Assembly: GCA_965225995.1 (NCBI GenBank)
Contig: CBDDCF010000030.1
Location: forward strand, 36,101-100,100
From: Acidobacteriota bacterium
Lineage (GTDB): Bacteria > Acidobacteriota > UBA6911 > RPQK01 > CBDDCF01
DNA length: 64,000 nt
Direction: 5' to 3'
The translations under genes were made by a program, and so were the position numbers. This document shows, piece after piece, positions 1 through 63,068 of this stretch. Position 1 is the first letter of the stretch, and each line of letters begins with the position of its first letter. The notes beneath the pieces are model-generated. The model ran no database searches and was not told where the DNA came from. It saw nothing but the letters and a program-made list of their open reading frames with translations.

Positions 1-1500
1 ACCCTTCTGTCGTCAATTCAAAACAAGATCCAGCACGACCTGGCCAGTTCGGAGTGGGCAGTGCAGGAAGTGTCAGAGCAGCTGCTGTCGGTTTACCGCT
101 CGATTCAGGATCCGATCTTCCGAGAACGTAGATTCGATCTCGAAGAGGTTCTCGAAAGACTGGCTCTCAACTTGATCGAGGTGGATCCCCACCATGGAAC
201 GATTTCCGATGACGACCTGGTTCTGGTGGCTCCCACTATCAGCTTGTCGATTCTGGCCGACTTTGAGGTCCGCCGAATCCGCGGCCTGGTTTCAACTCGG
301 GGCGCGGTCGCCTCTCACCTCACGATTCTGGCTCGCTCTCTCCAGATCCCGATGGTGGCGGAGATTGAAGATTTGACGCCGCTGAGCAGCGGCAAGAGAG
401 TGCTCATCGACGGGAACCGGGGCCTGGTCATGGTCGAACCCGAGTCGGTCGCTGGCGTCTTACCTCCTCCCGCCCGCCTGCAGCCTGATCTGGAACGCTG
501 GGAGTGGCGCTCTTGCGAAGTGGCAAAGACCCTGGATGGACAAGCGATCAGTCTCCTGGCCAATACCGAACTAGATAACGATCTGGAACAGGCCAGAGCC
601 GCTGGCGCTGAAGGTATCGGACTCTTCCGCACCGAGTATCTGTTCATGTCGCGTAAAGACGGGGCCATTGGCGAAGAACAACAGTATCGGCACTACCGCA
701 GATTAGCCGAACTAGTGGGCAGCCGGCCGGTTCACGTCAGGACCCTGGACATCGGTGATGAAGGTCATCCTTATTTCGTGGAACTGGCCGGTGAGACCGA
801 ACCCGTCCTGGGACTACGTGGGATTCGCCTCGGTTTGGAGCATCCAAAGATCTTCCTCCCCCAGATCCGGGCCATCTTGCGGGCCGCGTGCTTCGGAAAC
901 CTGAAGATCGTCTTCCCCATGATCTCCAGCGTCGACGAGGTGATTCGAGCCCGTCAGTTAGTGGATGAGGCTCGTTCCGAATTGGCTCGAGAACGAATTC
1001 CGATTCCGGCCATAGAAGTGGGTGTCATGTTAGAAGTTCCAGCTGCCGTCGTGTGCTTGGAAGCGCTGGCTGAGATCACCGATTTCTTTCTGGTGGGAAC
1101 AAATGATCTGATTCAATATACGCTCGCCATTGGTCGAAATGAACAGCGCGTGGCACATCTCTTTCAAGCCTTGCATCCGGCGGTTCTAGCGAGTCTTGCC
1201 CGTATCGCTGAGGTGACCCAGCGGGCCGATCGCCCGGTTACTGTGTGCGGCGAAATGGCGGCCCAACCCGGTTTGGCCGGCCTCCTAATCGGCCTGGGAT
1301 TCCGACAGCTTTCCATGAATCCATGGTCCATTTCGACGGTTCGAGAAAGAGTCCGTGGCATGACCCTGGTCGACCTCCGATCAGCAGCCCAGCAAGCCTT
1401 GAGTCTGAAGACGATTGAGGCGGTAGAGAACTTCATCGAGAATACTGATTTGCTGGGCACAAACCAAGGAACCCGTCCCAACAATGGGGTGAGGTTGTGA
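1..1500 (+). CDS. PEP-utilising enzyme: phosphoenolpyruvate-protein phosphotransferase (Enzyme I / PtsP-like), 5'-partial. Frame is open from base 1, and the first in-window Met is at 61.
   Basis: Phosphohistidine mobile-domain motif TRGAVASHLTILARSLQIPMV. PEP-utilising TIM-barrel motif GTNDLIQYTLA. No stop in frame upstream of 61, so the N-terminus lies outside the window. Confidence 0.75.
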   Translation, partial: TLLSSIQNKIQHDLASSEWAVQEVSEQLLSVYRSIQDPIFRERRFDLEEVLERLALNLIEVDPHHGTISDDDLVLVAPTISLSILADFEVRRIRGLVSTRGAVASHLTILARSLQIPMVAEIEDLTPLSSGKRVLIDGNRGLVMVEPESVAGVLPPPARLQPDLERWEWRSCEVAKTLDGQAISLLANTELDNDLEQARAAGAEGIGLFRTEYLFMSRKDGAIGEEQQYRHYRRLAELVGSRPVHVRTLDIGDEGHPYFVELAGETEPVLGLRGIRLGLEHPKIFLPQIRAILRAACFGNLKIVFPMISSVDEVIRARQLVDEARSELARERIPIPAIEVGVMLEVPAAVVCLEALAEITDFFLVGTNDLIQYTLAIGRNEQRVAHLFQALHPAVLASLARIAEVTQRADRPVTVCGEMAAQPGLAGLLIGLGFRQLSMNPWSISTVRERVRGMTLVDLRSAAQQALSLKTIEAVENFIENTDLLGTNQGTRPNNGVRL

Positions 1501-1571
1501 ACGCGAGTGTTTTCCGAGAATCTGAAGATAGACTGAAACAAATTGGATCTGTTACGATCTTAGGATATTAG

Positions 1572-19403: not shown

Positions 19404-19429
19404 CCCAATATCCTTTACAATGCGGCCTA

Positions 19430-20593
19430 GTGCACTGTCCGATAAGTTCCCGATGTTAATAGTGGCCGAGCGATTCGCGAGCATTTTGGACCTTTGCCAG
19501 GATTGAGTCAGCAGTGGCGCGCCACTTGAAGGGCTTGGCCAAGCGTTGATTGTGAACCCGAATATATCTTTTGATTTCCTGTCTCAACTCTTGGACGCTG
19601 CTGAAAGAGTTTCTGTAGATCGAACGGCGCTCCAGCTGTGAGAACCAGCTTTCGACGGCATTGAGCCAGGAGGCGCTAGTGGGCGTAAAGTGGAGGTGGT
19701 ATCGGGGCCGCTGGGCCAGCCAGCTTTGAACCTGCTTGGTCTTATGAGTGCTCGAGTTGTCCAGGATTAAGTGGACATCCAGTTCGGGCTCGACCGCTTG
19801 ATCAATCTGGCGGAGAAAAGCCAGGAACTCCTTGGCTCGGTGCCTATTGGTGATGCGGCCCATGACCTCACCTGTCACCACATCGAATGCGGCATACAGA
19901 CTGGCTGTACCGTGGCGCTTGTAATCGTGTGTCCGGCGTTGGATCTGTCCCGGTCTGAGCTGGAGCATCGGCTGAGTTCTATCCAGAGCCTGGATCTCAG
20001 TTTTCTCGTCCACGGATAGAACCAGCGCATTGTCGGGCGGATCCATATACAGCCCCACCACATCGATTACCTTTTCGGCGAAGTGAGGATCGTTGCTGAT
20101 TTTAAAGTTGCGGACTCGATGCGGCTTCAGGTCGGCTGCCTTCCAGATCTGGGCGACTTGATGTTTGCTCACTCCGGAGTGTTCGGCCATCAGTCGCACA
20201 CTCCAGTAGGTCGATTCCCGTGGGATGCGTTCAACGGTGGCTTTGAGAATAGCTCGCACATTGGCATGCGATAGCTTCCGCGGACGGCCCGATCGAGGTC
20301 GATCCTCCAGTCCTGACACTCCCTGCTCAAGATAGCGCCTGCGCCACATTTGCACACTCATTAGCCGCTTGGAGAGCCTTTCCGCAACTTCAGTCGCCGT
20401 CAGCCCCTGGCCGCAAGCCAGAATTATTTGAGCCCGTTCGGCCAAGACTCGATCGGTCTTGGAAGCCCGCAACCAGGACTCCAGTATTCTTCGATCATGT
20501 TCGGGTAGCTTTAGTCGAATGTGGGGTCTTGCCATGCCCAACAATAGCAAACTACCCTGACAATTAACATCGGTAACTTTCCGGACAGTGCAC
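19430..20593 (-). mobile_element. IS630-family insertion sequence (1164 bp), flanked by TA
   Basis: Imperfect ~31-bp terminal inverted repeats: GTGCACTGTCCGATAAGTTCCCGATGTTAAT at the left end, and the reverse complement of GTGCACTGTCCGGAAAGTTACCGATGTTAAT at the right end. TA at 19428-19429 and 20594-20595. Confidence 0.8.
19456..20535 (-). CDS. IS630-family (Tc1/mariner-like) DDE transposase
   Basis: N-terminal HTH, DDE region (LILDNSSTHKT ... HFTPTSASWLNAVE). Confidence 0.85.
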   Translation of the reverse strand: MARPHIRLKLPEHDRRILESWLRASKTDRVLAERAQIILACGQGLTATEVAERLSKRLMSVQMWRRRYLEQGVSGLEDRPRSGRPRKLSHANVRAILKATVERIPRESTYWSVRLMAEHSGVSKHQVAQIWKAADLKPHRVRNFKISNDPHFAEKVIDVVGLYMDPPDNALVLSVDEKTEIQALDRTQPMLQLRPGQIQRRTHDYKRHGTASLYAAFDVVTGEVMGRITNRHRAKEFLAFLRQIDQAVEPELDVHLILDNSSTHKTKQVQSWLAQRPRYHLHFTPTSASWLNAVESWFSQLERRSIYRNSFSSVQELRQEIKRYIRVHNQRLAKPFKWRATADSILAKVQNARESLGHY

Positions 20594-20882
20594 TAGTGCA
20601 CCTGTACAATGCGGCCTAGTGCACCTGGAACCTGTCCGAGTAATGGGGTGAGGGTGCGAACATGGGTCTTGCCTTCAATCCTTTGAAACAAGAGTCTTTT
20701 CACCTACACCCAGATTCAACCAGGGTACCATTTTCCTCCGTCAACCAGCTCAGTCAACGGAAAGACAGTCGCAAGACTCGGAAATTGGGGAGGCAGGTTC
20801 TGATCCTATCCGGATACCAAAACGGCAGCTCGATTTCTTGTAGACTTGCCAGGTTACCGGCAACGGCGCCGCTGCCTAGCCG

Positions 20883-21587: not shown

Positions 21588-21818
21588 GCCACTCTTAAGG
21601 ATGAACAAAACGTCATTAAAGTCGGGTGATGCACGGCACAAAACTGATTTCTCGGCCAATCGCCAGCAAAAGTATCCTTGAATGTGCTTTGCCACTTGGC
21701 ACCAATTATTCCTTTCGAATCTATCACGAATGGCTTCGAAGGGTAATGGAGTGCGGTAGCGCAAAACTCGGAAATTGGGGATGTAGAGTGCTGATCCTGT
21801 CGTCCAAACCCAGTCAGA

Positions 21819-21866
21819 CCGGATGATCCCGGCCCTGTAGCCGAAAACTTGTGAATGATCCGGGCC
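21819..21866 (+). repeat. MITE-like ~48-bp element, copy A
   Basis: GGATGATCCCGGCCCTGTAGCCGAAAACTTGTGAATGATCCGGGCC. Related copies at 24142, 29816 and 54418 (the last in opposite orientation). Confidence 0.4.
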
Positions 21867-21892
21867 AAATCCCCCATGCTATACTCGCCCCG

Positions 21893-23458: not shown

Positions 23459-24204
23459 TGGGGACTCGCTCCCCGTCTGATGTCGTCGGCAGTTTGGAAC
23501 TCTCCATCCGGCCCAGCCGAACGAAGATCGTAAGTCGCCTCTGAAATCCGATGAAAGTAAAAGCCTCGCGACCAGGGATCGAGCCGGATCACCTGAGTCA
23601 GGTAAAGAGGACTCAGAGCGTCGATCAGTTGCTGGAAGTCTTCGGCTGCGGGCAACTCCCCGTAGCTGGATCGATAGCTCTCAATGGCACTCTGAATGTC
23701 CGCCAGTTGGCGACCTGCTATTTGCTCACGCTGCTGGCTGATCGCGGCCAGAATCACATCCGCCTTTTCCCAACGCCGATCTCCCAGCCTGATTTCTTCC
23801 AGGTGCCAGGACTCCCCCACCCGGCGCAATTTGAGAGCGGTTTGAATCTTCACTTCGGCGATCGCCAGATCGCCACTCTGCTGGACGTCCAGGATCTCGA
23901 TCTCATCTTTCTTGAGTTGGGCATTGTCCAGATTGCGGATACTCTCCTTCATCTGTTGATCCAGATTCTTGCCGCAGCCGGTTACCACCAGAACGAGCAG
24001 GAAGGCTAACCCGCGTAATTCACAAGGTATCGAAGCGAAGGGTCGCAAGCGGCGCGCTGACAAGACTTTACGCCCGAGGGCCGCGCGGGCATAGTCTTGC
24101 ACTCTGCTGAGCAGCCGGAGGGTGGGCAACGCAGTCAGCAGGGATGATAGCGGGCCTGCAGCCGACAATTTGTGAATGATGCGGGCTAAGATTCGGTTCT
24201 GCAT
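23455..24204 (-). CDS. Lipoprotein with type II secretion pseudopilin (GspG)-like C-terminal domain; true start uncertain
   Basis: Lipobox LLVLVVTGC. C-terminal DPWSRGFYF...RSAGPDGEFQTADDI resembles the GspG C-domain. The first ~60 codons of the ORF translate MITE copy D and are probably not coding. Confidence 0.4.
   Translation of the reverse strand: MQNRILARIIHKLSAAGPLSSLLTALPTLRLLSRVQDYARAALGRKVLSARRLRPFASIPCELRGLAFLLVLVVTGCGKNLDQQMKESIRNLDNAQLKKDEIEILDVQQSGDLAIAEVKIQTALKLRRVGESWHLEEIRLGDRRWEKADVILAAISQQREQIAGRQLADIQSAIESYRSSYGELPAAEDFQQLIDALSPLYLTQVIRLDPWSRGFYFHRISEATYDLRSAGPDGEFQTADDIRRGASPQ
24142..24190 (+). repeat. MITE-like element, copy D
   Basis: GGATGATAGCGGGCCTGCAGCCGACAATTTGTGAATGATGCGGGCTAAG. 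Confidence 0.4.
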
Positions 24205-24307: not shown

Positions 24308-25177
24308 ATGAAACAAAAACTGCTCTTTGAGTCGAATCATCAGCGAAGCGATCGATGGGTTCTCTCGTTTCGGAGGAGATTGTCTTCCCGATCCGGTTTC
24401 GCAGATCAAGACTCGGACCAGGGGAGGATGATTCAGGCCTACTCGTGGCCTGTCCTCGAGAAAGCCGGAGGAGGCAAGGTCCCTCTACTCCGGGAAGCCA
24501 GAACCCGAGGGCCCCGGCAGATCCTGATTGGGAGCCTGGGTGACCCTTATGCCAGTGACGCGAGCTGCGTGCTGACACGGGGAGTGCTCGAAGCCTGGTC
24601 GCGGGAGTGGGGCAAATCGATTTGGCTGATTACTCGTTCCTCTCGAGTGGAGCGCGATCTTCATCTGCTACGAGCCTTAAGCTCCCGTCACCAGCTCTTG
24701 GTTTCGGTGATGTTCAGTACGTTGGATCGGACTCTGGCAGAGCAGTTGGAGCCTGGCTGCTGTGCTCCCCGAGAACGACTGCAGGCCCTGTCCCGACTCT
24801 CCCGGGCCGGAATTGGGACCGGGGGACTGCTGGTGCCGATCCTGCCCGGAGTCAACGATACCTTCCCCGTCTTGGAGGGGTTGATGGGAGCTCTCGTGGA
24901 GGCTGGTATCAGTCATCTCAAGGTGGCAGCGGTGCGCCTGAGGAATGCTGAGAAGAGAGAGGCTTGCCTCAGCTTCCTGGAGCGGCTGGGTCCTGTGCAG
25001 GGTGAAGCCGCGCGCACGAGGTTCATGGGAGGAGCAGAGCCTTCCCTGGATTACCAGCGGATGGTGGCAACCCGGATTCGAGTTTTGCGTCAGAAATTCG
25101 GGCTGGCGACAGACGATTCGCATCCTCGCAGGCTCCTCCAGTTGTCGCTGCTTAGGGGAGGTCCGGTGGCGGCCTGA
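24308..25177 (+). CDS. Hypothetical protein resembling SplB/'DNA repair photolyase' radical-SAM TIM-barrel proteins but lacking the CxxxCxxC cluster motif
   Basis: C-terminal AGIGTGGLLVPILPGVND motif is typical of COG1533-like proteins. The N-terminal GDPYASDASCV segment has a single Cys where the CxxxCxxC would be. Confidence 0.3.
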   Translation: MKQKLLFESNHQRSDRWVLSFRRRLSSRSGFADQDSDQGRMIQAYSWPVLEKAGGGKVPLLREARTRGPRQILIGSLGDPYASDASCVLTRGVLEAWSREWGKSIWLITRSSRVERDLHLLRALSSRHQLLVSVMFSTLDRTLAEQLEPGCCAPRERLQALSRLSRAGIGTGGLLVPILPGVNDTFPVLEGLMGALVEAGISHLKVAAVRLRNAEKREACLSFLERLGPVQGEAARTRFMGGAEPSLDYQRMVATRIRVLRQKFGLATDDSHPRRLLQLSLLRGGPVAA

Positions 25178-25237
25178 GCTAAGAGCCTGTCCGAGTATTG
25201 GTGGCGGATTGCGTACCAGGGTCTCGCCAAGTTTCTT

Positions 25238-25550
25238 TCTTGAATGATCCGGCGCAGCCGGTGGACGGGCTAAGATGACACTTGATTTGTGGGACGAGTA
25301 TGGCACAGGCTTTCTTGGAGTTCTCTCCCTGGATGGCATTGAAGTGGTTTCGGATGTGGGAGGGGCCGTTCCCAGGCCGCGAAAGGGCCGTCAGGCCCGA
25401 CTATGAAGATCTTATTTTATTAAGATCGCCGTCTCAGAAGGCGCCTCCCACGGTTTTGAAACACCGCTTTCCTCCGCGACACCATCCCCCGTTGTGGCTT
25501 CCCGGGAGCTCAAGTTACTTTCCTGAATGATCCGGCCACCGGCCGGGGGA
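25238..25550 (+). repeat. ~265-bp structured repeat, copy 1 (core 25270-25527), flanked by ~35-bp MITE-like direct repeats
   Basis: Core starts CTAAGATGACACTTGATTTGTGGGACG. ~85% identical to 52249-52515. Flanking gaatgatccgg...gggctaa segments lie at 25241-25274 and 25516-25550. Confidence 0.6.
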
Positions 25551-25666
25551 TGGGCTAACCTGAAACTTTCTAAGGCGCTGCAAGCGCTTCCTGGTTTGGG
25601 ATGTCAGAGTTGATGAATGGGGTAGGAAACGAATCCAGGCCGAAAATCGGCTACTATGGGAAACCC

Positions 25667-27784
25667 ATGAAGTCATTGCTGGGGCTCCCCGTTCAAGGCA
25701 TTTCGGGAATTGCCGGCAAGCGGGCCGCCGTCCTTGAAGGAGCAGGCATTTGCACGCTCGAGGACATGCTCTGCTACCAGCCGTTCCGCTATGAAGATCG
25801 ACGTGAGTTCCGTGCTTTGAGCCGTTTGGTGGAAGGCCGGAAGGTCCTGTTGCGGGGGCAAATCCGGGCCGCCGGCACCTTTCAAACCCCACGCAAGCGG
25901 GTGCGGATCTTCGAGGCCGTGGTGGCCGACGATTCAGGGAGCCTTCCCCTGAAGTTCTTTAATCAAGGTTATCTGGAAAAAGTCTTGCGTCGGGGGAGTG
26001 AGATCGTCCTCTACGGGGTTGCTCGCCGCGACTCCTACACGGGGCAGTTGACGATGGTGAATCCCGAATTCGAGCTGATCAATGCCGATCAGGATCAGGG
26101 GATTCATATGGGGCGAATTGTGCCGGTCTATCGGCGCATCGGCAATCTGCCGACCCGAGCCCTCCGGCAAATCATGTTTCGCGTTTTGCGCACTCTCTCG
26201 AGGGGCGATGTCGGAGACTTGCTTCCGGCCGAGCTCCTTGACAAGTATCGACTTCCGGGCCAGCTGGAGGCTTTTCAGCAGCTTCATTTTCCGGAGGTCG
26301 AGGGTTCTGGATTGGCTTTTGTGGAGAGCTTGAATGAGGCTCGCAGTCCGGCTCATCAGCGCTTCATCTTCGAAGAGTTCTTTCTCTTCCAACTGGGACT
26401 GGCGGAATTGAAGCGACGTCGACTGGTGGAGCCGCGTCCACGCAGTCTCGAGATCAAGCCGAAAATACGAGACGTGATCAAGCGAATCTTGCCCTTTCAC
26501 CCCACGGCGGCGCAAAAACGGGTATTGAAGGAAATTGTTGATGATCTGACTGGGGAGCGAGTCATGAGCCGGCTATTGCAAGGGGATGTCGGATCGGGAA
26601 AGACGATCGTAGCCTTGCAGGCGATGGTCGTGGCCCTCGAAAATGGTTTCCAGACCGCTTTGATGGCTCCTACTGAGTTGCTCGCAGAACAGCATCTGAG
26701 GACCTTTCGCGAGCGCTTTGAGCACGTTCCGTACAACATTCAATTTCTAAGTAGCCGGGTGAAGGGAAAAGAACGCAGAGACGTCCTAGACGAGGTGGCG
26801 GATGGTCGGGCCCAAATCGTCATAGGAACCCACGCGCTCTTCCAGGAAGATGTGCAGTTTGCCGATCTGGGGCTGGTCGTGATCGACGAGCAGCACCGCT
26901 TCGGGGTGGTACAGCGCTCCCAGCTGATGCACAAAGGGAGAAAGCCCGACACGCTGGTCATGACTGCTACTCCGATTCCCCGGAGTTTAGCCCTGACGGT
27001 GTATGGTGAGCTGGATCTATCCGTCATCGACGAGTTGCCGCCGGGTCGAAAGCCAATCGAGACCCGAGTCTGTGGCGAGGGGCAGCGCTCGGCAGTCTAC
27101 CAATTCTTGGATCGGGAATTCGAAGCTGGACGGCAAGCTTATGTAGTTTATCCGCTGGTGGAAGAGTCGGACAAATTGCAGCTCAAGGCGGCCACAGAGA
27201 TGGCGGCTCTCCTGCAGGAGAAGATATTTCCGGAACGTCAAGTAGGACTCGTACACGGGCGACTGAAGGGGGAGGAGAAGGAGGAGCTGATGCGCCGCTT
27301 CCAGTCTGCAGACTTGGATCTGCTGGTGGCGACAACAGTAATCGAGGCGGGTATCGATGTGTCAAATGCTACTGTGATGCTGGTCGAGCATGCCGATCGA
27401 TTCGGGCTCTCGCAACTCCATCAGCTGCGCGGTCGTATCGGGAGAGGAAGTCAGCGTAGCGTATGCATCCTGATGGTGAGCGATGAGATAACGGAAGAAG
27501 CGCGGCTGCGGCTCGAGATCATGGCCCAGACCAATGACGGTTTCAAGATTGCCGAGCGTGATCTTGAACTGCGCGGGCCAGGAGAGTTCGTGGGAACCCG
27601 CCAGTCGGGAGTACCGAATTTTCGTTTTGGCAATATCGTGCGCGATCGGCGCTGGCTAGAACTGGCCCGTGAGGAGGCCCAGAGCTGGTGGAAACGGCAA
27701 GATCCGAAATCTTCGGATCCGGCCCTGCTCTCCTCGGTGCGCAGCCAGTGGAAGCGCCGCTTTTCTCTTTTCGAAGTGGGATGA
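25667..27784 (+). CDS. recG: ATP-dependent DNA helicase RecG
   Basis: Wedge domain, helicase motifs GDVGSGKT, DEQHRFG, and QLHQLRGRIGRG. Start MKSLLGLPVQGISG at 25667 is preferred. Confidence 0.9.
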   Translation: MKSLLGLPVQGISGIAGKRAAVLEGAGICTLEDMLCYQPFRYEDRREFRALSRLVEGRKVLLRGQIRAAGTFQTPRKRVRIFEAVVADDSGSLPLKFFNQGYLEKVLRRGSEIVLYGVARRDSYTGQLTMVNPEFELINADQDQGIHMGRIVPVYRRIGNLPTRALRQIMFRVLRTLSRGDVGDLLPAELLDKYRLPGQLEAFQQLHFPEVEGSGLAFVESLNEARSPAHQRFIFEEFFLFQLGLAELKRRRLVEPRPRSLEIKPKIRDVIKRILPFHPTAAQKRVLKEIVDDLTGERVMSRLLQGDVGSGKTIVALQAMVVALENGFQTALMAPTELLAEQHLRTFRERFEHVPYNIQFLSSRVKGKERRDVLDEVADGRAQIVIGTHALFQEDVQFADLGLVVIDEQHRFGVVQRSQLMHKGRKPDTLVMTATPIPRSLALTVYGELDLSVIDELPPGRKPIETRVCGEGQRSAVYQFLDREFEAGRQAYVVYPLVEESDKLQLKAATEMAALLQEKIFPERQVGLVHGRLKGEEKEELMRRFQSADLDLLVATTVIEAGIDVSNATVMLVEHADRFGLSQLHQLRGRIGRGSQRSVCILMVSDEITEEARLRLEIMAQTNDGFKIAERDLELRGPGEFVGTRQSGVPNFRFGNIVRDRRWLELAREEAQSWWKRQDPKSSDPALLSSVRSQWKRRFSLFEVG

Positions 27785-29483: not shown

Positions 29484-29815
29484 AATTTTTCTTAAGATTT
29501 CTCGGCCGCACACTTGTACGTTGTTCTGCATCTATCATTTCAGACCCGTAGCAAAAACTGAAAACCGGTTTCGATCGATCGCCGTTCCTGCCGATCGAGC
29601 GCCGAATAACAGAGCGCCAAGCGGCAGCGCGAGCGCGGGAAAGCGTGGCGACGATTCGCCGAAACTCCGCTTAAAACCGGGCCAGCGCTTCCGCTTGCGG
29701 TCCCGATATCTTGCGCCTGGCGAATGCACGTCACTGCTGCGCCCTGGGCTTTGCGACTCTGATACCCGCACTTTCGCTCTGATCGGCGCGGCGGTCGATC
29801 TAAATTGACTCTTTT

Positions 29816-29863
29816 CGGATGATCCCGGCCCTGCAGCCGAAAACTCATGACTATCCGGGCTAT
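29816..29863 (+). repeat. MITE-like element, copy B
   Basis: CGGATGATCCCGGCCCTGCAGCCGAAAACTCATGACTATCCGGGCTAT. Confidence 0.4.
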
Positions 29864-30018
29864 GTCTCTGCGATTGCATTTCGTTTGTATCTCGGCGGCC
29901 TCAGCGATGTCAGCTCCTCTTGGTTCCCCGGTGAACCAGTTTGACTCCCTGCACCCGCGCTCACTAAAATCGCGCCGAGAATTGTTTCAGCGAGTCCGTT
30001 CGAGTCACCGGGGATCTG

Positions 30019-37126: not shown

Positions 37127-38305
37127 ATGCGGCGTTATCCTGTTCTTTCACTGGCCTGGACTGTCACGTTCTTGTCCCTCTCTCTGGGGCAATTGACTGC
37201 TCAAGAGGCGTCTTCACCACAGCTCGAAAAGATCATCCTCAATCCCGGATTCAAGATCGACCTCTACGCAGGTAACGTACGAAATGCCCGTTCCCTCGTA
37301 AGATCTCCCGAAGGGGTTCTGTTTGTAGGCACGCGCAGCGCCGGCTTCGTCTGGGCGGTGGTGGATTCGAATGGCGACCACCAGGCGGACCGTATCGTGC
37401 AGATTGCTGAAGGACTCCTGATGCCTAACGGAGTGGCCTACCGCGACGGATCACTCTACGTGGCCGAGATAAACCGGATTCTGCGCTATGACAATATCGT
37501 CGAGCGGCTAGACAATCCGCCAACCCCGGTTGTGTTGAACGACAGCCTGCCGAAGGATCGTCACCACGGGTGGAAGTTCATCGATTTCGGTCCCGATGGC
37601 AAGCTCTATGTCCCGGTGGGAGCCCCTTGCAATATCTGCGAACGCCTGGACGATGATCGCTATGCTTCTCTCCTGCGGATGAATCCCGACGGGACCGGCC
37701 TCGAAGTCTTTGCCAAAGGGATTCGGAATACGGTCGGCTTCGCCTGGCATCCCACAACGGGAGACGTCTGGATCACCGACAATGGTCGCGACTGGATGGG
37801 GGACAATATGCCTCCCGATGAGCTGAACCGGGCCACCCGGTCGGGCATGCATTTTGGATTTCCCTATTGCCATGGCGGATTCATGGCTGACCCAGAATTC
37901 GGATCCATACGGGGTTGTGACGAATTGACTCCGCCAGCACAAAACCTGGCTCCCCATGTGGCAGCCCTGGGAGCCGAGTTCTACACCGGAGCCATGTTCC
38001 CCAAGGAATACCGGAATCAGCTCCTCATTGCCGAGCATGGTTCCTGGAACCGTGCCCTTCCCCTCGGTTTTCGAGTCACTCTGGCCCGTATCCAAGACAA
38101 CACCAAAGTTGTGAACTATGAGGTGTTTGCTGAAGGATGGCTGGCGGGGGAAGAGGTCTGGGGACGTCCGGTGGATCTGCTGCAGCTACCCGATGGATCC
38201 CTACTTCTCTCGGATGACCAGGTGGGCGCGATCTATCGAATCAGCTACGATGCTGCGCTGGCCCTCGAGCAGGCCCCGGGTCCGCGCCGTCGCGGCGGCG
38301 ATTAG
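37127..38305 (+). CDS. PQQ-dependent sugar (sorbosone/glucose) dehydrogenase-like beta-propeller, secreted
   Basis: Signal peptide. Length and the HGG, DNGRD and PDG motifs are typical of soluble quinoprotein dehydrogenase family proteins. Confidence 0.55.
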   Translation: MRRYPVLSLAWTVTFLSLSLGQLTAQEASSPQLEKIILNPGFKIDLYAGNVRNARSLVRSPEGVLFVGTRSAGFVWAVVDSNGDHQADRIVQIAEGLLMPNGVAYRDGSLYVAEINRILRYDNIVERLDNPPTPVVLNDSLPKDRHHGWKFIDFGPDGKLYVPVGAPCNICERLDDDRYASLLRMNPDGTGLEVFAKGIRNTVGFAWHPTTGDVWITDNGRDWMGDNMPPDELNRATRSGMHFGFPYCHGGFMADPEFGSIRGCDELTPPAQNLAPHVAALGAEFYTGAMFPKEYRNQLLIAEHGSWNRALPLGFRVTLARIQDNTKVVNYEVFAEGWLAGEEVWGRPVDLLQLPDGSLLLSDDQVGAIYRISYDAALALEQAPGPRRRGGD

Positions 38306-38375
38306 AGTTCGGCTGAAATGCGATCGCAGAGTGTTGTGTTGCAATCCGGAGATCAACTCAAGCCCGACTACAAAG

Positions 38376-38450
38376 CTTTTATTTTCAATAAGATCGCCGC
38401 CTGGGAAGGCACCTCCCACGGTTTTGAAACTCTGTTCTCCTGAAAGGCAG
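38376..38450 (+). repeat. Partial copy (~75 bp) of the ~265-bp structured repeat
   Basis: AGATCGCCGCCTGGGAAGGCACCTCCCACGGTTTTGAAAC matches the core of the copies at 25413-25478 and 52395-52460. Confidence 0.45.
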
Positions 38451-38522
38451 AATTGCGATTCTGGCTAGTTTTGAGACAGCTTGAAGATGCCTGCGTTACT
38501 TTGGCAGGCAGGGATGCCTGCG

Positions 38523-40297
38523 CTACTTTAGCTTAGGTAAGACCGCCAGCCGAAGCTCTTCTAACTGCTCTGGAGTCACCGGCGAGGGCGCCCCTGACAT
38601 CAGATCGAGAGCACGGGCCGTCTTGGGAAAAGCGATCACCTCGCGTAGCGAAGACTCCCCGGCCAACAGCATGGCGATCCGATCCAGGCCAAGAGCGATT
38701 CCTCCATGGGGAGGGGCACCGTAGCGTAGTGCTTCCAAGAAGAAACCGAAGCGCAGGTCGGCTTCCTCGTCCTGGATCCCCAAGAGCTGGAAGATCTTCC
38801 GCTGGACCTCGGTCTGATGGATTCGGATGGAGCCTCCGCCAATTTCGGAGCCGTTCAAGACGACGTCATAGGCCTGGGCGAGGGCAGCACTTGGATCAGT
38901 TTTCAAGAGAGCTTGATCTTCAACCCGCGGCGCCGTGAAAGGGTGATGGAGTGAGTAGTATCGACCATCAGCCTCATTCCATTCCAAGAGTGGAAAATCT
39001 TGAACCCAGAGAAGGTTCCAGGCGTCGGGAATCAGATTTCGCTGAGTGGCGACATGGGAACGCAGGGCCGCCAACGAATCATTGACTACCTTGGGCTGAC
39101 CCGCCACGATCAAGAGGATGTCCCCGGTTTTCGATCCTGCCAGCCGGCAAACTCGCTCCAATTCGGGCTCGGTCACCACCTTGGGAAGTGAGCTGCGGAT
39201 ACCTTCCGGGAGGTGTTGGATCCACGTCAGAGCCTGGGCTCCGAAAGCTTTGATGAATTCTCCGAGCTGGTCGAGCTGTTTTCGACTGAGTTCGGTTCCC
39301 CCTTCGAGGCAGATTCCCTTGATTTGTCCTCCACTCTCGAGAATGCTCCGAAAGATCCGAAACTGGCTGCTCTCGAAACCACCACTCAAATCGACTAATT
39401 CCAATCCGTATCGGGTGTCGGGCCGGTCGGTGCCGAAGCGTTCGACCGCTTCGTGGTAGCTCAGACGCGGGAAGGGAAACGGGAATCTCGACGCCGATCA
39501 GCTGGAAGAGATCGGCCAGCAGGCTTTCGACCGTGCTCAAGACAATCTCGCGGTTCACGAAAGACATCTCGATGTCGATTTGTGTGAATTCGGGCTGACG
39601 ATCGGCCCTTAGATCCTCGTCGCGGAAGCAGCGTACGATCTGGAAGTAGCGATCGAATCCCGAGATCATCAGGATCTGCTTGAAGATCTGTGGGGATTGA
39701 GGAAGCGCATAGAAGTGTCCCCTCTTGGAGCCGGCTCGGTACCAGGTAGTCGCGAGCCCCCTCCGGAGTCGATTTCGTCAAGAAGGGAGTTTCAATTTCC
39801 AAGAAACCCTGTGCGTCGAGATGCTTCCGAACGCTGAGAGCGATCTGATGACGGAGTTTCAAGTTCCTCTGGAATTGCGGGCGACGCAGATCGAGATAGC
39901 GATAGCGAAGCCTATTTTCTTCGCTGATAGCGGCTTTTTCGCTGAGCGAAATGGGAGGAGTATCGGATCGGTTTAGCAGTACGACTTTTTTGGCCAGAAC
40001 TTCGATCTCGCCGCTCGGCATGTCCGGGTTGACTGTTTCAGGAGAGCGATGAACGACCTCTCCCTGAACCAGGACGACGAACTCCGAGCGCATCTGCTTG
40101 GCGGTTTCGAAGGCTTCCACGGATTCGGAATTCACGGTCACCTGAACGATCCCTTCCCGATCCCGTAAGCTCAGGAAAATGAGGTTGCCCAGGTCTCTGC
40201 GATTGTGGACCCAGCCCATGAGAGTAACCTGGCTCGAGGCGTCAGATGCACGCAAGAGTCCACAATAGTTGGTTCTCGAAGACGTGGTTTGATTCAT
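38523..40297 (-). pseudogene. aspS: Aspartyl-tRNA synthetase, interrupted by at least two frameshifts (pieces 40297->~39730, ~39669->~39490, 39404->38523)
   Basis: N-terminal piece with anticodon-binding region and [25 protein letters not shown]. Middle piece [52 protein letters not shown] in another frame. C-terminal piece with motif 3 GGIALGLDRIAM in a third frame. The first shift is at a CCCC run (~39730). Confidence 0.85.
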
Positions 40298-48675: not shown

Positions 48676-49156
48676 GGGCTGAAGGCTCTGTCATGGGAGG
48701 CTGTTGCCGAACTCGGGGTGAGCTTGTGGTGGTTTTCCGGCGCAACGGGTCTTGGGAATCGAGGGATGTGAACTACCGACGGTTTCAGGCCGGATACCAA
48801 AGCGGCAGCTCAATTTCATAGAGAATCGTCTAGTTTTCGTCAGCGATTCCGCTGCAGCACCAAATCGGCTCGCCGATTTGGAGTGCGCCTAGGAGCCTGT
48901 CCGAGTATTGGGGTGCGGTTGCGAACAGGGGTCTTGTGAGTCGAGCCGCTTTGGTATCCGGCTGAGCGTCGTGATCTTGAGTAGTCCAATAGTCCGGCAA
49001 TAGATGCCATGGCTACAGCGCCAAGGTACCGGCGGCGCGAGAATGTACAAGTCCAGCTGCTGTCGGCTGCCCAACCGGCTTCATCTGTCGCTGTTAACTA
49101 TAGTGTCTATCGATATAGCTTAGTAATCCATAGTCTTGCGTTCTGGAGAGCTTTCT

Positions 49157-52248: not shown

Positions 52249-52515
52249 CTAGGATGAAACTTGATTTGTGGGACGGGTATGCCACAGGCTTTCTTGAAGT
52301 TCTCTCCCAGGATGGCATTGAAGTGGTTTCGGAGGTGTGGGAGGGGTCCTTCCCAGGCCGCGAGAGGGCCGTCAGGCCCGAATCTAAAGATTCTATTTTC
52401 AATAGAATCGCCGCCTCAGAAGGCGCCTCCCACGGTTCTGAAACACGGCTTTCCTCTGCCACATCATCCCCCCTTTGTGGCTGACAGGGAGCTCAGTTTC
52501 CAACAATTTCCACCC
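52249..52515 (+). repeat. ~265-bp structured repeat, copy 2, 13 bp downstream of the ADOP permease stop
   Basis: CTAGGATGAAACTTGATTTGTGGGACG... ~85% identical to 25270-25527. An internal hairpin carries compensatory substitutions between the copies. Confidence 0.6.
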
Positions 52516-52785
52516 TTCCTGCGAGCTTCCTCCCAGGGATTCTCGCCACTCTTCCCGAGGTCCGTGCTACGCTCCTACGGAGGAGTATGGTAGTCTCTGA
52601 AAATTCCTAACCGGTTTATTATCAACGGTGTATCAAACTAGAGTCCAGGCTGGAGGGGGATTTGATCGAGCGGCTCGACGCTCGTATTGGGGGTTTGGTT
52701 TCACGGAATTCAGGCAGGACTGCCCTGCGGGCTTTTTTTTTGCGAAGCGCCAGTTTCAGTCTCGAAAAACAGGAGAGCGGAAGCC

Positions 52786-53937: not shown

Positions 53938-54417
53938 GAGGTTGTCCATGATTTCCCGCAACTGGAGAATTCGATGTGGTCCTTGGCGGGCATTGGATGA
54001 GCAATGCGGATACCTTCGGCCTGGCCGTTGGACCCTGGGCCGCGCTGCGCTCCGCGGCTCTGATAGGGTGCCCGGAAGCTCAGTTGGAGTCGATCAGCGG
54101 AGCCTGTAATTGGAACGCTGATTCTCAGAGCCCCGAGCCCGCGAGGGGTATCGGATGCCCGCTCCTTGCTCCAGAGAGACGATTTGCTAATGCTTTCCTC
54201 TCCCAAGTCCAACTCGCCCTGGGCTGATTCGGAAGGGCAAAGGCACGGGGGAGCAGCCGACAAGGCTGCAATCCAGCTGGTGAGAGTCCAGCCGTGTGAA
54301 TTACTCGTTCACACACGTATCGATGCCGCTGCTCGGGGCAGGTAACCAACCGAGATTTGCGTGGTGTAAACGGCCTGGCCGTCCTTCAAAAGAAGCGGCG
54401 GGAGCAACCTGGAGGTC

Positions 54418-54468
54418 TAGCCCGGATAATGCACGAGTTTTCGGCTGCAGGGCCGGGATCATCCGCTC
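54418..54468 (-). repeat. MITE-like element, copy C (reverse orientation)
   Basis: CTAGCCCGGATAATGCACGAGTTTTCGGCTGCAGGGCCGGGATCATCCG. The first 20 nt resemble the IS1380-like terminal repeat at 58598 (CTAGCCCGGATTATGCAAGA). Confidence 0.4.
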
Positions 54469-55132
54469 TGACTGCGTTACCCACCCTCGGGCTCCTCGAC
54501 AGAGGGCACGACTATGACTGCAGCCCGGAAATGTGCCCCCCTGGTGAAGTTGCAGAGTTGGGGATGTGTGGTGAGCCGAACGTCTCCCGTGTCACGTAAG
54601 GCCGGAGTGTCTTGGGAAGCAACGAGTAGCCGGAGGAAAGGTCATGGTCGCCAACCGGACTTGGGAAATCCGACCGTTCCGGATGAAACGGGGGGCTTGC
54701 GGAAACGTGAGCAATGGTGGAACTAGGAACCCGCCGCACAACCGAAAGGGTGCGGGTCGGAAACTCTCCACCTAAGGCTACGCGCGTCGTACTGCTATCC
54801 CAACCAGGGGTTGCCCGTCTGAGGGGAGCCCTTGCCAATATGAACTTGATGCCATGTGCTCAGTTCATAAAGTGGCGTAAACCACTGATGATTTCATAGT
54901 TCTCTCCCTTCGGACATCAGGGATCCTACCTGGCAACCCTCCAGAATACGGCAACGGAACGTGGGAGCTCTTCCAGTTTCTTTCCTGAATGAGCCGAGGG
55001 AACCTCGGAAGCACTGCTAGTACTTTGAAAGCCGGAACCCGAATGTTATAAAAACGATATAGATCGACCGCCGGTGCTTTGCTTCGAGCGCTGAACAACA
55101 GAGCTCGTCAGCGGCCCTTGGGAGTTATTACA

Positions 55133-58597: not shown

Positions 58598-60252
58598 CTA
58601 GCCCGGATTATGCAAGAACCGTAGGCCGGAGTTGAAAAGAGAGTCGAAAGTGGCCTAAATCGGGAGATCGAAGGTGCGACAGGCGGATTTTCGAGGGATC
58701 TCTGTGGACGAGCCGTGTGGAGTAGGTGGGGGAGTGAATTTCAGACGGAGTTGGGCCTGAATGAGTGTCCTAAACGATCATTCGGGAGCTAGGAGAGGCT
58801 AGCTGGAGTTAAGGCGATTCAAGACGAGGAGGAAAAGGGCCTGCTCCGGAAAGCCGGAGGAAAGATGGGCCCAGATGCGTCGAGTGGTTTGTCGAACCCG
58901 CGCCCCAATTTTGAGGACCCGGCGACGCAAAGTTTCGATTTCGAGTTTCTGCCAGGGGGTTCCATACAGATAATCGCGGAGTCGGACGAACATCTGGTAA
59001 GCCAGCCCATGCAGGAGAAGTCGAAACTGGTTGGCCAGGAATCGATGACAGCTCAGCCGATCCATACTCAGATGGTTCTTAAAAGCCTTGATGAAGTTCT
59101 CCGACTGTCCTCGATCGGTGTAGTGATCATAAAGGGACTGGGAAGAGAGATCGTCTCGGTTGGTGACCACAAAGCGACGATTGATCCCCCGATGGTCGAC
59201 TTCCACTTTGACGATGACGCGACGGAATCGATCCCAGCTGCTGGCTCGATAAAGAAACTCGTCAAACTGACGCTGTTTTTCCTCGAACTCGTCGAACCTG
59301 AGTCGAGTCGACTCGAGCATCGGCTCGACCATCCGTTGCCGGCGGGGGTTCCGGCTTAACCCAATGACATATTGGAGTTTGTTCTCTTCAGATTCACAGA
59401 ACTCGTAGAGCCGAGGCGTGGCAAAGCCGCTGTCGGCCCGGATCTCAATTTGAAGTTCCTTGCCAACTTCTCGTCGAATGGCTTTCACGATTCGTTTCAG
59501 AATAGGAACGATGTGAGAGGCAGCCCCCTTGTTTCCAGGCCTCAATACGACAGTGACCAGGTCCCCCGTAACGGCATCGAAGATCAGCCAAGGATGCAGA
59601 ATGTGGTTTCGGTAATAGCCGTGGTAAAAAGAGAATTCCTGTTGGCCGTGAGTGTGGTCGTCAGTACTGTCCAGGTCCAAGATGACCGGGTCGGGGCGTC
59701 TCTTCTTCAGCGAGCGGACATAACGCTGTAGGAACCCCCGGCTCAGACGCATGAGATCCTTCTTGCTGACAGAGTTTTCCAAACGGGAAAAAGTTGCCTG
59801 GGTGGCCAAGTCAGGATCGCTCTCAGGTAACTGATCACAGACGGTCTTGAGCATGGGATCCGAGCGCAGCGTGTCCGCGTCATTGCAGTCTTCGTACCCG
59901 GCAACGATCTGAAAGACTCGTTGTCGGATCAGCTGTAACTGCTCATGACGAACGTAGCGTTGGTCCCGGCTATCCGCAATACACGAACTGAAGTCCTCGC
60001 AGAGTCGATCTTGCCGATCCAGGGAACCAAACAACAGCCATCCGGCATCGGAAGTCAGGTTCCCACCATCAAAACGAGCCGTGATTTGTGTGTGCGAGTG
60101 AAATGCCAGGGTGGTCTGACAGACTGGGTTTGACATTGCCGTAGTTCTCCGATAAGGATTTGTTTAATAAACCCTTTTATATCAGAGAGATACGGCATTT
60201 TTTCTGGTCCCCAATCCACTCGAATCCGGATCTCTTGCATAATCCGGGCTAG
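58598..60252 (-). mobile_element. IS1380/IS4-like insertion sequence (1655 bp) with perfect 20-bp terminal inverted repeats
   Basis: CTAGCCCGGATTATGCAAGA at 58598-58617 and its exact reverse complement at 60233-60252. If CTAG is the target duplication, the TIR is the 16 bp beginning with CC. Confidence 0.75.
58799..60136 (-). CDS. DDE transposase (IS1380/IS4-like, DDE_Tnp_1)
   Basis: 445 aa; DLDSTDDHTHG and DSGF acidic motifs. Confidence 0.75.
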   Translation of the reverse strand: MSNPVCQTTLAFHSHTQITARFDGGNLTSDAGWLLFGSLDRQDRLCEDFSSCIADSRDQRYVRHEQLQLIRQRVFQIVAGYEDCNDADTLRSDPMLKTVCDQLPESDPDLATQATFSRLENSVSKKDLMRLSRGFLQRYVRSLKKRRPDPVILDLDSTDDHTHGQQEFSFYHGYYRNHILHPWLIFDAVTGDLVTVVLRPGNKGAASHIVPILKRIVKAIRREVGKELQIEIRADSGFATPRLYEFCESEENKLQYVIGLSRNPRRQRMVEPMLESTRLRFDEFEEKQRQFDEFLYRASSWDRFRRVIVKVEVDHRGINRRFVVTNRDDLSSQSLYDHYTDRGQSENFIKAFKNHLSMDRLSCHRFLANQFRLLLHGLAYQMFVRLRDYLYGTPWQKLEIETLRRRVLKIGARVRQTTRRIWAHLSSGFPEQALFLLVLNRLNSS

Positions 60253-60706
60253 AACACGATACAGGCGATTCTCAACCGTTTCCCTGGAAGGATAGCTGTC
60301 GGGGGCCACATCAAAAGCGGCCACTCAGGGCCGGGTCAAAACCGGCCAGTGATCTAGTAGTTATATCCTCGCCTTGAACACATTTCAATCCTTGTGAAGG
60401 CCTCCGTGAGGAGGCTGTACGGCCTGCTGGTCGGGGTGGGTTTGCTGTGAGCCCGTGAGCAGGGCGTTCGTTGACCGGTTCGGCCGGTTCTTGGACCGCG
60501 AAGCTGGTCGATCCGGAATCTTCTTTCTTGTTGGTATGTCCAGTAGCAGAAGCGGTGCGTAACTGTGGGAAACGAGCGAGCACCGCGAGCCGTTTTCCAA
60601 GCGCTGTGGGAACGGTGGAAGAACCGATGCATGGGCCAGCTTCTCGATGTGACCGTTCTCCACGGTTTCCATAGCGCGGCAGTTTCCACGGCTTTCCGGT
60701 TCCGGA

Positions 60707-61480
60707 TCATTTCTTTTCTCCTCGCTTCTTGGTCGACTTCTCCCGTTGTTGACGTTCGTAGAGGCGATAGCTCTTGCCTCGAATGAAGGTCACCTCCGAA
60801 ACGTGTAGAAAACGATCCAGCAGCGCAGAGGTGGCCGCCGTGTCTCCTCCCAGCATCGCTCCCCAGTCCTCGAGTGGTCGGTTCGAACTGATAATGGTCG
60901 AGGTCTTCTGGTAGCGGCGATGCAGGATCTCCAGCAGATCTTCAGCCGCCGAGTCGGGCACTCTCCGAAGTCCCAGATCCTCGATGATCAGCAGCGGGAT
61001 CCGGGTCATCTCTGCAATGTAGGGTCGGCGCATCCCGGTGGCAGTGGCTTCAGCGATGTCCTCGAGCAGATCGAAAGCCGACTTGTACTGTACCCGGTGA
61101 CCCGCTTCCACAGCCTTGATTGCCACCGTGATGATCAGATGTGTTTTGCCGACTCCCGCCTGACCGATGACCAACCAGCCGCGACACTGTTCGATGAATC
61201 GGCAAGTGGCCAGATCAAAGATCTGCTGCCGATTGATCGAGGTGTTGAAAGAGAACCTGAAGTCCTCCAAGAGTTTGCGTTCCGGGAACTGGGCCTGGCG
61301 GAGACATCGCTCCAGCAAACGGTCGCGCCGGCGGGTGAGTTCGTCGTCGATGAGCAGCTCAAAGAACTCCTGATGAGAGAGACGGCCCTGGATGGCTTGT
61401 TGCAGCCGTACGTCAAAGACCTGGGCCAGGCCCGAGAGCCTGAGGTGGCGAAGTTTCCGTTCCAGTTCCAATGAGATCAT
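60707..61480 (-). CDS. istB: IS21-family helper ATPase IstB
   Basis: Walker A GQAGVGKTHL, Walker B LLIIEDLG. Confidence 0.9.
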   Translation of the reverse strand: MISLELERKLRHLRLSGLAQVFDVRLQQAIQGRLSHQEFFELLIDDELTRRRDRLLERCLRQAQFPERKLLEDFRFSFNTSINRQQIFDLATCRFIEQCRGWLVIGQAGVGKTHLIITVAIKAVEAGHRVQYKSAFDLLEDIAEATATGMRRPYIAEMTRIPLLIIEDLGLRRVPDSAAEDLLEILHRRYQKTSTIISSNRPLEDWGAMLGGDTAATSALLDRFLHVSEVTFIRGKSYRLYERQQREKSTKKRGEKK

Positions 61481-62973: not shown

Positions 62974-63068
62974 CGGCGCATCCTACGAGGGATGCAGCTC
63001 TCAATGGCTCCTGAAAATGGCCGGTTTTGAAGTGGCCCTCACTGGCCGCTTTTGGGTGGCCCCTGACA

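Follow-up and report, generated by a model that had tools for sequence, protein, structure and literature searches.

Introduction

BOX elements of Streptococcus pneumoniae are modular repeats composed of boxA, boxB and boxC with variable content, which lie between genes and show a stable predicted fold. REP and BIME elements block 3'-to-5' exonucleases, and Correia and ERIC elements offer sites for RNase III or RNase E. Elements of the IS200/IS605 type insert in one orientation 3' of an asymmetric tetranucleotide, without target duplication or terminal inverted repeats (TIRs), and comprise a hairpin near the right end; the PATE elements derived from them likewise show no TIRs and no duplication, a motif at one flank only, a subterminal hairpin and a fixed orientation. 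For ERIC, an orientation-dependent effect on mRNA stability has been described, and Correia elements (NEMIS) are small and non-coding repeats, the long double-stranded stems of their transcripts being open to processing by RNase III (PMC2229807). RU-3 of E. coli and Shigella, a partly conserved repeat with a long stable stem-loop and imperfect inverted repeats, is probably an old, immobile miniature inverted-repeat transposable element (MITE) (PMC2229807). The present study deals with a dispersed repeat of an uncultured member of the Acidobacteriota, found in a stretch of 64,000 nucleotides (assembly GCA_965225995.1, contig CBDDCF010000030.1, positions 36,101 to 100,100), which is called the window in the following.

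The repeat family is new in its sequence and ordinary in kind. Its members are modular, contain a long palindrome, lie in sense orientation behind genes and are restricted to one species. On balance, they probably represent a fossil family of small, modular, non-autonomous MITE-like mobile elements confined to this species. A reading of the window that was made from its sequence only (the sequence-only reading) had proposed either a larger MITE or a small RNA family, and is taken up below where our results bear on it.

Extent of the repeat family

The genome of the source species comprises 7,443,179 bp (~7.44 Mb), and the proteins of the window lie on its contig. Beyond the window, ~490 kb of non-redundant DNA of the species was covered, originating from strain-level long-read assemblies and sampled around copies of insertion sequences (IS). 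These loci, denoted by L and a number, were reached via the contig of the amidase P0001 and via exact-sequence look-ups of protein clusters. All of them belong to strains of one species, with 99.3-99.7% identity to the window across orthologous stretches, and a horizontal transfer between distant genomes, which had been considered, was therefore withdrawn. A search of the window and the ~490 kb by nhmmer yielded six long and four short-variant copies together with several fragments:

25270..25511, + strand: body of c1, long form, starting with CTAAGATGACACTTGA and ending with GGGAGCTC, aligned with five other long copies
52249..52515, + strand: c2, long form, homologous to c1 until ~52499, 13 nt past a permease stop codon
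38355..38484, + strand: c3, short variant (F-type), with a core of ~85 nt that corresponds to the apical hairpin and the 3' arm
54958..55010, + strand: c4, a 5'-truncated remnant with GGGAGCTC, the inverted-terminus motif and a module E with CCGAGG-GAA-CCTCGG, ending with CTAG
L083:9996-10263: c5, long copy
L104:6179-6437: c6, long copy
L108:20663-21233: c7, long copy, split by an insertion of ~310 bp
L115:9139-9398(-): c9, long copy
L083:14090-14229, L108:21269-21443(-) and L115:18816-18955: further short-variant copies (nhmmer)
L096:3477-3576: fragment, 5' module only
L109:12958-13036(-): fragment

The two full, similar copies of the sequence-only reading were recovered with 87.4% identity over 247 nt (BLASTN; 25270-25512 against 52249-52495) and nhmmer E-values of about 1e-90 (1e-89 for c1). 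In the multiple alignment, the six long copies (c1, c2, c5, c6, c7 and c9) showed a mutual identity of 76-92%, the upper value being that of c2 and c5, which lies at an unrelated locus (93% by BLASTN). A conserved 19-mer, CCTCCCACGGTTNTGAAAC, occurs three times in the window compared to an expected 0.06. The length, previously given as ~265 bp, has to be extended to about 290 bp for c1 with its 3' module (25270-25558). Extrapolation suggests a copy number in the order of 100 per genome, with a wide margin of error.

Two further sites had been listed as partial copies. The one at 38376-38450 is not a decayed copy; it belongs to a distinct subfamily of ~125 nt with 91-95% identity at unrelated loci. 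The stretch 38358-38441 matches the central 85 nt of the long copies (E 1e-16, nhmmer), and c3 possesses a 3' module of its own, consisting of a hairpin CAGAAT-TGCG-ATTCTG followed by GCTAGTTTTGAG; its 91-95% identical counterpart at L083:14090-14229 is located behind an unrelated gene. At the other site, near 54975 (c4), the match holds true for the last ~15 nt of the body and the flanking module, while the body itself is absent.

Outside the species, no copy was detected by nhmmer in 1.43 Mb from 80 other Acidobacteriota. An exact scan of the GTDB species genomes with a 22-mer pattern around the conserved 19-mer gave no match, the same pattern gave one match in the JGI metagenomes, which is eukaryotic and occurs by chance, and neither the conserved 19-mer nor a second conserved 22-mer was matched in the IMG/VR viral contigs. 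An Rfam search, which the sequence-only reading had suggested, was carried out: no match to the repeat in the window reached the gathering score, and at E-values up to 10 both copies gave only noise. Concerning the host, RecG, encoded next to c1, showed 56-57% identity to its best counterparts among the GTDB species genomes, which are exclusively metagenome-assembled genomes of Acidobacteriota, and a chimera search with three window proteins returned solely MoeB homologues of at most 63% identity. The repeat family is thus real and restricted to one species.

Modular structure and termini

A full unit of ~290 bp starts with the conserved terminus CTAR-(G/A)(A/C)TGAAAYTTGA, followed by a 5' module of ~70 nt, an imperfect palindrome of 130 nt and a 3' module of ~45 nt. 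In the latter, CATCATCCCCCCTTTGTGGCT..GGGAGCTC runs into CAGTTTCNTTC, which repeats the 5' terminus in inverted form. The body is followed in most copies (c1, c6, c7, c9 and c4) by a module termed E, which also occurs standalone in L107. It comprises TGAATGATCCGG, a GC hairpin of 5-6 bp with a loop of 3 nt, ~8 nt of spacing and a final CTAA, CTAG or CTGA. In c1, c6 and c9 module E is followed by CCTGAAAYTT, a repeat of the 5' terminus. The features around c1 are as follows:

25179..25226, + strand: module of the D3 family between the stop codon at 25175-25177 and E1
25228..25273, + strand: module E1, with AGTTTCTTTCTTGAATGATCCGG, hairpin CCGGC-GCA-GCCGG and GGGCTAA, 80-81% identical to E2
25511..25558, + strand: module E2, which forms the 3' module of c1; hairpin CCGGCC-ACC-GGCCGG, GGGCTAA at the end
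25555..25570, + strand: direct repeat of the 5' terminus of the element, CTAACCTGAAACTTTC, with the counterparts CTAGCCTGAAATTTTG in c6 and CTGATCTGAAACTTC in c9

The stems of module E are wholly different among the copies and always paired (CCGGC/GCCGG, CCGGCC/GGCCGG, CCGAGG/CCTCGG, GAGGC/GCCTC and GCCAG/CTGGC). The module, from TGAATGATCCGG to GGG|CTAR, aligns with the end of a resident IS5-like IS and with the D5 modules probably derived from it; the IS end CCCGGATTATGCA is common to the D5 modules and, with the hairpin inserted, to module E. This bears on the direct repeats of ~35 bp that had been described as MITE-like flanks of c1. The repeats are real and even longer, comprising 56-58 nt with 80-81% identity (25228-25283 and 25513-25568, BLASTN). 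Since module E aligns with the IS5-like terminus and with D5, they are a separate, IS-end-related module and not a target duplication.

Short inverted termini are recognizable in c5, where the 5' sequence AATGAAATTTGA has its counterpart AATGAAACTGGA in the reverse-complemented 3' end; the match is imperfect and covers ~12 nt, with 10 of 12 positions in agreement between GATGAMACTTGA (5' end) and TCAAGTTNC (3' end). No IS in the ~490 kb carries this terminus. The modularity is also reflected by the partial copies: the 5' module occurs alone in L096, the 3' end alone in c4 and L107, and the core is joined to another 3' module in c3, L083 and L115. In c7, the insert of ~310 bp is itself composed of other small modules, and copies of the repeat are embedded in piles of other IS-related modules.

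Position and orientation relative to genes

The claim that the copies lie downstream of genes in sense orientation was confirmed for all ten interpretable copies, each of which has a co-oriented gene ending 5' of it; with random placement and orientation, each copy would do so with a probability of ~0.5. Four copies lie between tandem genes (c1, c2, c5 and L109), all four in sense, six lie between convergent genes and none between divergent ones. The genes upstream are mutually unrelated, and the copies lie at distances of 13-27 kb from each other, with recG, ldh and aspS among the housekeeping genes that flank them.

The distances to the stop codons, formerly given as 13-85 bp, were determined as 93 (c1), 13 (c2) and ~50 nt (c3). 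The 5' boundary of homology is sharp and always CTAA, CTAG or TTAG. In c6 and c2 the CTAR start lies 4-13 nt past the stop codon, while in c5, L109 and the short copy of L115 the CTAR terminus supplies the upstream stop codon or abuts or overlaps it. In c1 it is the D3 module that starts 2 nt past the stop codon at 25175-25177. An exception is c9, which is located ~900 nt from its co-oriented gene.

No sigma-70-like promoter and no intrinsic terminator was found in or beside c1 and c2, and a scan of 25100-25700 and 38250-38600 revealed no intrinsic terminator; past the hairpins of module E, the sequence is rich in G and no U tract follows. A function as promoter or terminator was rejected, as consensus sites are missing. 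The sole terminator near c2 is located ~200 nt downstream (52714-52738, GCAGG-ACTGC-CCTGC followed by a T run); it lies ~50 nt ahead of the likely ATG of a moeB-like gene (52786), and a stretch that looks conserved (52600-52710) is located between c2 and this terminator. Since the repeats follow their genes in sense and no terminator intervenes, they are probably read through from the upstream gene.

It was also considered that the orientation is set by the direction of replication. The orientation of the element tracks the upstream gene better than the local GC skew, which is negative at L096 and L104, where the element is on the + strand. This explanation was dropped, as the skew is too weak and in part contradicts it.

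Proposed origin and probable past mobility

The following course of events could account for these observations. The units would have spread in the past, landing or being retained at CTAA and CTAG sites, which in this GC-rich genome would often be stop codons; such a preference would therefore explain the position directly behind genes. It would be shared with the resident IS5-like element, and purifying selection against insertions elsewhere may have added to the pattern. Later, the copies would have decayed to 76-92% identity, become truncated and been invaded by other small elements. In their present state, they would be read through from the upstream gene and form a long hairpin in the sense-strand RNA of the 3' untranslated region (3' UTR). 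The elements are accordingly described here as probably old, now inactive or immobile, and co-transcribed in 3' UTRs.

Of the 8 junctions, 7 show CTAR and 5 show CTAA at the left flank. On the right side, CTAR recurs only after module E. In a comparison of the strains, each strain covering the respective site was found to carry c1, c2, c3, c5 and the L096 fragment, while IS elements are polymorphic there. The divergence between strains was ~0.7% in the elements and ~0.4-0.5% genome-wide, so the elements show no extra conservation.

Several observations weigh against a mobile origin. No target-site duplication was detected, the right flanks of the body being CTGA, CATG, GGTC and AATT. No autonomous element with these termini was found in the ~490 kb, nor was a parent protein. 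The inverted termini are imperfect and comprise only ~12 nt, and among the strains compared neither a presence/absence difference nor an empty site was observed. Furthermore, the sense orientation, as well as the G-U excess, the stem conservation and the four compensated pairs described in the next section, fit a selected RNA too.

Nonetheless, the MITE-like origin is preferred, because the family is confined to one species, its copies are modular and truncated, one copy is split, the copies lie in piles of IS modules, and neither promoter, terminator nor Rfam relative was found. Of the two proposals of the sequence-only reading, the larger MITE fits better than the small RNA family. The units are small, non-coding and present in multiple copies, whereas the target duplication and insertion polymorphism of a strict MITE were not found.

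Fold and pairing of the palindrome

The explanation that survives second best, and which we regard as possible but not probable, is a selected cis-acting RNA module of the 3' UTR, in which the sense hairpin is kept for its effect on the upstream message. Such a module could block 3'-to-5' exonucleases, or could offer a site for RNase III or RNase E that uncouples upstream and downstream genes. The evidence for it comes from the position of the copies, all ten behind a co-oriented gene, the four tandem ones in sense, none in a divergent promoter region and none separated from its gene by a terminator (the first one being that at 52714-52738), from the precedent of ERIC with its orientation-dependent effect on mRNA stability (PMC2229807), and from the following features of the palindrome:

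25341..25470, + strand: central palindrome of c1, 130 nt, a long irregular hairpin
52320..52452, + strand: central palindrome of c2
25385..25398, + strand: small internal hairpin, GGGCC-GTCA-GGCCC
25408..25427, + strand: apical AT-rich hairpin, GATCTTA-TTTTAT-TAAGATC

For c1, the predicted RNA fold of the + strand has -63.7 kcal/mol (z -5.8) and that of the - strand -53.2 kcal/mol (z -3.9); for c2, the respective values are -72.9 kcal/mol (z -7.1) and -64.0 kcal/mol (z -6.0). Accordingly, the sense strand is more stable than the antisense strand by ~10 kcal/mol in both copies. The consensus of six or seven copies comprises 40-43 pairs, with 95.5% of the cells paired. Stem columns showed half the diversity of unpaired columns (0.128 compared to 0.252, p = 0.005), and the stems contain ~28 G-U cells against 5 A-C cells, an excess that favours the sense strand.

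Four pairs are changed on both sides, all of them within the two small hairpins. In the internal hairpin, GGGCC/GGCCC is replaced by GGACC/GGTCC in c8 and by GAACC/GGTTC in c7, two pairs thus changing on both sides, with an A.C intermediate in c5, c6 and c9. In the apical hairpin, two adjacent pairs alternate between C-G and U-A, the form of c2 being GATTCTA/TAGAATC. This corresponds to the compensatory changes between c1 and c2 that the sequence-only reading had pointed out. Its proposed covariation check on more copies yielded the four compensated pairs, whose score was matched by 8 of 500 shuffles, although such results arise in 5-25% of unconstrained related sequences. The long stem was little informative, since it is mostly invariant or shows only changes between G-C and G-U.

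The apparent constraint can also have causes other than selection. The G-U excess may result from strand-biased C-to-T mutation of the non-template strand, and apparent compensation may come from template-switch correction within DNA palindromes. In addition, the fold of c5 is largely lost (z -2.2), and the short variant and the fragments, which have no pairing partner and fold no better than shuffled sequence, persist all the same. The upstream genes share no common feature, the elements diverge between strains no less than the genome average, and the family is absent outside one species, which likewise speaks against a 3'-UTR module. Altogether, the data suggest a constraint on the single-stranded fold of the sense strand, with evidence that is not decisive. 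Of the earlier conclusion that structure is under selection, the maintained pairing with some compensatory change holds, while a selected constraint is suggested. Under the favoured MITE-like origin, the constraint most likely reflects a single-stranded fold needed during mobility, or a mild effect of the RNA on the upstream message.

A further reading, which appears rather improbable to us, is an orientation-specific mobile or recombining unit of a kind not described before, without TIRs or target duplication and with direct repeats of 15 nt (CTRA-N-CTGAAAYTT) as its boundaries. Such a unit would home to stop codons and be kept as a sense hairpin of the 3' UTR, with an influence on how the upstream message is processed or decays. 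If true, it would be an acidobacterial counterpart of REP and ERIC with an insertion mechanism that targets stop codons.

Single-strand transposition and small RNA genes as unlikely readings

A relic of a single-strand transposon (HUH/Y1, IS200/IS605-like) is an unlikely origin of the repeat. It would explain the left CTAA in 5 of 8 junctions without a matching duplication on the right, the GC hairpin 7-8 nt before the terminal CTAA, CTAG or CTGA in E1, E2, c4, c9 and L107, and the strict orientation. A single-stranded DNA intermediate would agree with the strand asymmetry of the G-T pairing, and a Y1 transposase element is active in the species. Contrary to this, the ends of the resident IS200 share no sequence with the repeat, no left-end hairpin resembles the right-end hairpin, and no TnpB or Y1 gene lies beside any copy. 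Moreover, the orientation follows the upstream gene better than the GC skew, and module E is better explained by the IS5-like end. A link to the IS200 pair in L085 was rejected due to the unrelated ends. This pair (L085:18866-19996), two identical tandem IS200-type elements encoding a 125-aa Y1 transposase, is located beside two tRNA genes and is absent from L084.

Even less probable are independently transcribed small RNA genes with their own promoter and terminator. Although the stable, conserved fold and the intergenic location in multiple copies would be expected of such genes, no sigma-70-like promoter or intrinsic terminator was found in or beside c1 and c2, Rfam gave no relative at E-values up to 10, the copies are truncated at either end and start at or within stop codons, and the family is restricted to one species. 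The small RNA family of the sequence-only reading therefore fits less well.

A variable repeat of a diversity-generating retroelement, considered in view of the site-specific variation, was rejected as well, since neither a template repeat nor a reverse transcriptase lies nearby, the genes upstream are not related to one another and the variation shows no consistent tie to adenines.

Coding potential

That the short open reading frames (ORFs) on the copies are not conserved coding sequences, as stated before, was corroborated in several ways. Between c1 and c2, indels of 2 nt at 25355 and of 1 nt in the hairpin loop at 25419 occur, and the copies altogether are separated by indels of 1, 2, 4 and 5 nt, none a multiple of three. 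The ATG of the plus-strand frame, which starts with MKLDLWDGYATGFL, is changed to CTG in c6, c9, L096 and L109, and c6 comprises an in-frame TGA at codon 6. The differences in the ATG frame are mostly non-synonymous.

All six substitutions between c1 and c2 in the first 85 nt (25273-25330 compared to 52252-52309) fall into one codon phase, and five of the six are synonymous in a minus-strand frame. This frame has no start codon and contains TAA TAA in the hairpin loop. With four copies compared, the phases are distributed 9/3/7, which is not significant; the single-phase pattern, which the other copies do not keep, is probably due to chance.

The reading frames of the repeat gave no Pfam match. 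When the minus-strand peptide of 48 aa was compared to 1.84 billion representative proteins, only low-complexity repeat proteins and no parent transposase or gene were returned. A six-frame chimera of c1 and c2, compared to 5.8 billion proteins, had a sole match, the penicillin amidase P0001 (L082:8768-10765), whose called N-terminus runs through another copy of the repeat for ~90 codons. Spurious ORFs of 35-116 aa were called on other copies, and both this extension and the small ORFs are annotation artefacts of the repeat. No ORF is conserved in any frame, and the candidate peptides are charged or Arg-rich and not hydrophobic, unlike those of type I toxin-antitoxin systems.

A small protein encoded by the repeat in either frame, or a fragment of a transposase pseudogene, can practically be dismissed, as the broken frames, the missing family match and the loss of the phase pattern with more copies outweigh the single-phase substitutions, the 71% similarity that the c2 and L096 frames show over 31 aa at the N-terminus and the fusion to the amidase gene in one assembly.

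Neighbouring mobile elements

The genome is very rich in IS, many of which are polymorphic between strains. The resident IS5-like IS (1655 bp) lies at 58598-60252 of the window and also at L090:2294-3938; it encodes a DDE transposase of 445 aa and has the ends CCCGGATTATGCA. Strain comparison revealed a 4-bp duplication of CTAA or CTAG and polymorphism between strains. An extra copy was found in strain L090 at window position 25570-25573, adjoining c1, with a 4-bp CTAA duplication. The D5 modules of ~60-105 nt (21807-21868, 24085-24189, 29803-29864 and 54411-54521) begin with YTAGCCCGGATNATNCA, the IS5-like terminus, and judging from this sequence are probably miniature derivatives or solo ends of that IS.

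The D3 family comprises modules of 45-50 nt with the consensus CCTAGGAGCCTGTCCGAGTATTGGGGTGCGGTTGCGAACAGGGGTCTTG. Four copies lie in the window (1468-1512, 20627-20671, 25182-25226 and 48892-48936) and at least 10 in the sampled DNA of the species, including at least six in L096, L102 and L103. They are nearly always preceded by CTAG or CTAA, often directly past stop codons, and are commoner than the 265-bp repeat. A mini-element of ~48 nt, CTAG-GATGACACTTGAATCCGGATGACAACCTCGGACAAGCTGTCTCAAAA-CTAG, was observed at L083:14230-14290 and L102:20638-20653(-); its first 12 nt are identical to the 5' terminus of the long repeat.

A fragment of group II intron domains D1-D4 is located at 54274-54409, perhaps extending to ~54800. 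Its match to Rfam RF02003 has 32 bits (E 2.5e-5) and thus stays under the gathering score of 49, and the D5 module at 54411-54521 apparently interrupts it. Elsewhere in the species, a full gene for a group II intron reverse transcriptase occurs (L117:2192-3505). The window also contains an IS21-like element with istA/istB and inverted ends of 37 nt (60312-63054), an IS110-like element (19425-20596) and a stretch of 300 nt that is repeated with 99% identity (20009-20308 and 63069-63368).

Comparison with known systems

Small interspersed repeats have hardly been described in the Acidobacteriota. The repeat, together with the modules E, D3 and D5, shows that an IS-rich soil-type genome of 7.4 Mb comprises mosaic intergenic repeat clusters as known from enterobacteria, Neisseria and pneumococci. 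In practice, the copies mislead gene callers into spurious ORFs and false N-terminal extensions, as seen for the amidase P0001, and assemblies from short reads will break at the repeats. Should the strict sense orientation past stop codons hold across the whole genome, the family would lend itself well to distinguishing tolerated junk from 3'-UTR regulators.

The ERIC sequences (IRU) of enterobacteria, imperfect palindromes of 127 bp, are likewise intergenic, form a long stem-loop and are co-transcribed with their neighbours, and their mobility has never been seen directly. In contrast to them, the present repeat comprises ~290 bp, is modular, occurs in one species and lies strictly in sense behind the upstream gene; the sequences show no similarity. 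Correia elements of Neisseria are often located near gene ends as well. While they possess clear TIRs of 26 bp, a TA duplication and both orientations, the repeat has weak termini of ~12 nt and no duplication was seen. BOX resembles it in being modular; however, its modules and sequences are others, boxB forms tandem arrays, and there is no link to an IS5-like end.

REP elements and REPINs differ in their composition, since the repeat is a unit of ~290 bp with a palindrome of 130 nt and without GTAG-tagged units, and the only Y1 genes seen are those of the IS200 copies, whose ends are unrelated. An integron attC array can be set aside, as neither an array nor a pair of inverse core and core (RYYYAAC ... 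GTTRRRY) was found in the sequence. Compared to PATE, the repeat shows no likeness to the IS200 ends of the species, its left and right hairpins do not match, and no gene for TnpA or TnpB is associated with it.

The IS5 family and its MITE derivatives are characterized by a 4-bp duplication of CTAR or YTAR. The resident IS duplicates CTAA, and the junctions of the repeat are also CTAR. In contrast, the body of the repeat is dissimilar to the resident IS5-like IS, its left end carries no IS terminus, and CTAR does not occur at both ends of every copy. RU-3 is smaller (103 bp), has a TA motif at its 5' end and lacks a 3' hairpin module, but its evolutionary state, that of a probably old and immobile MITE, is the one proposed here for the acidobacterial repeat.

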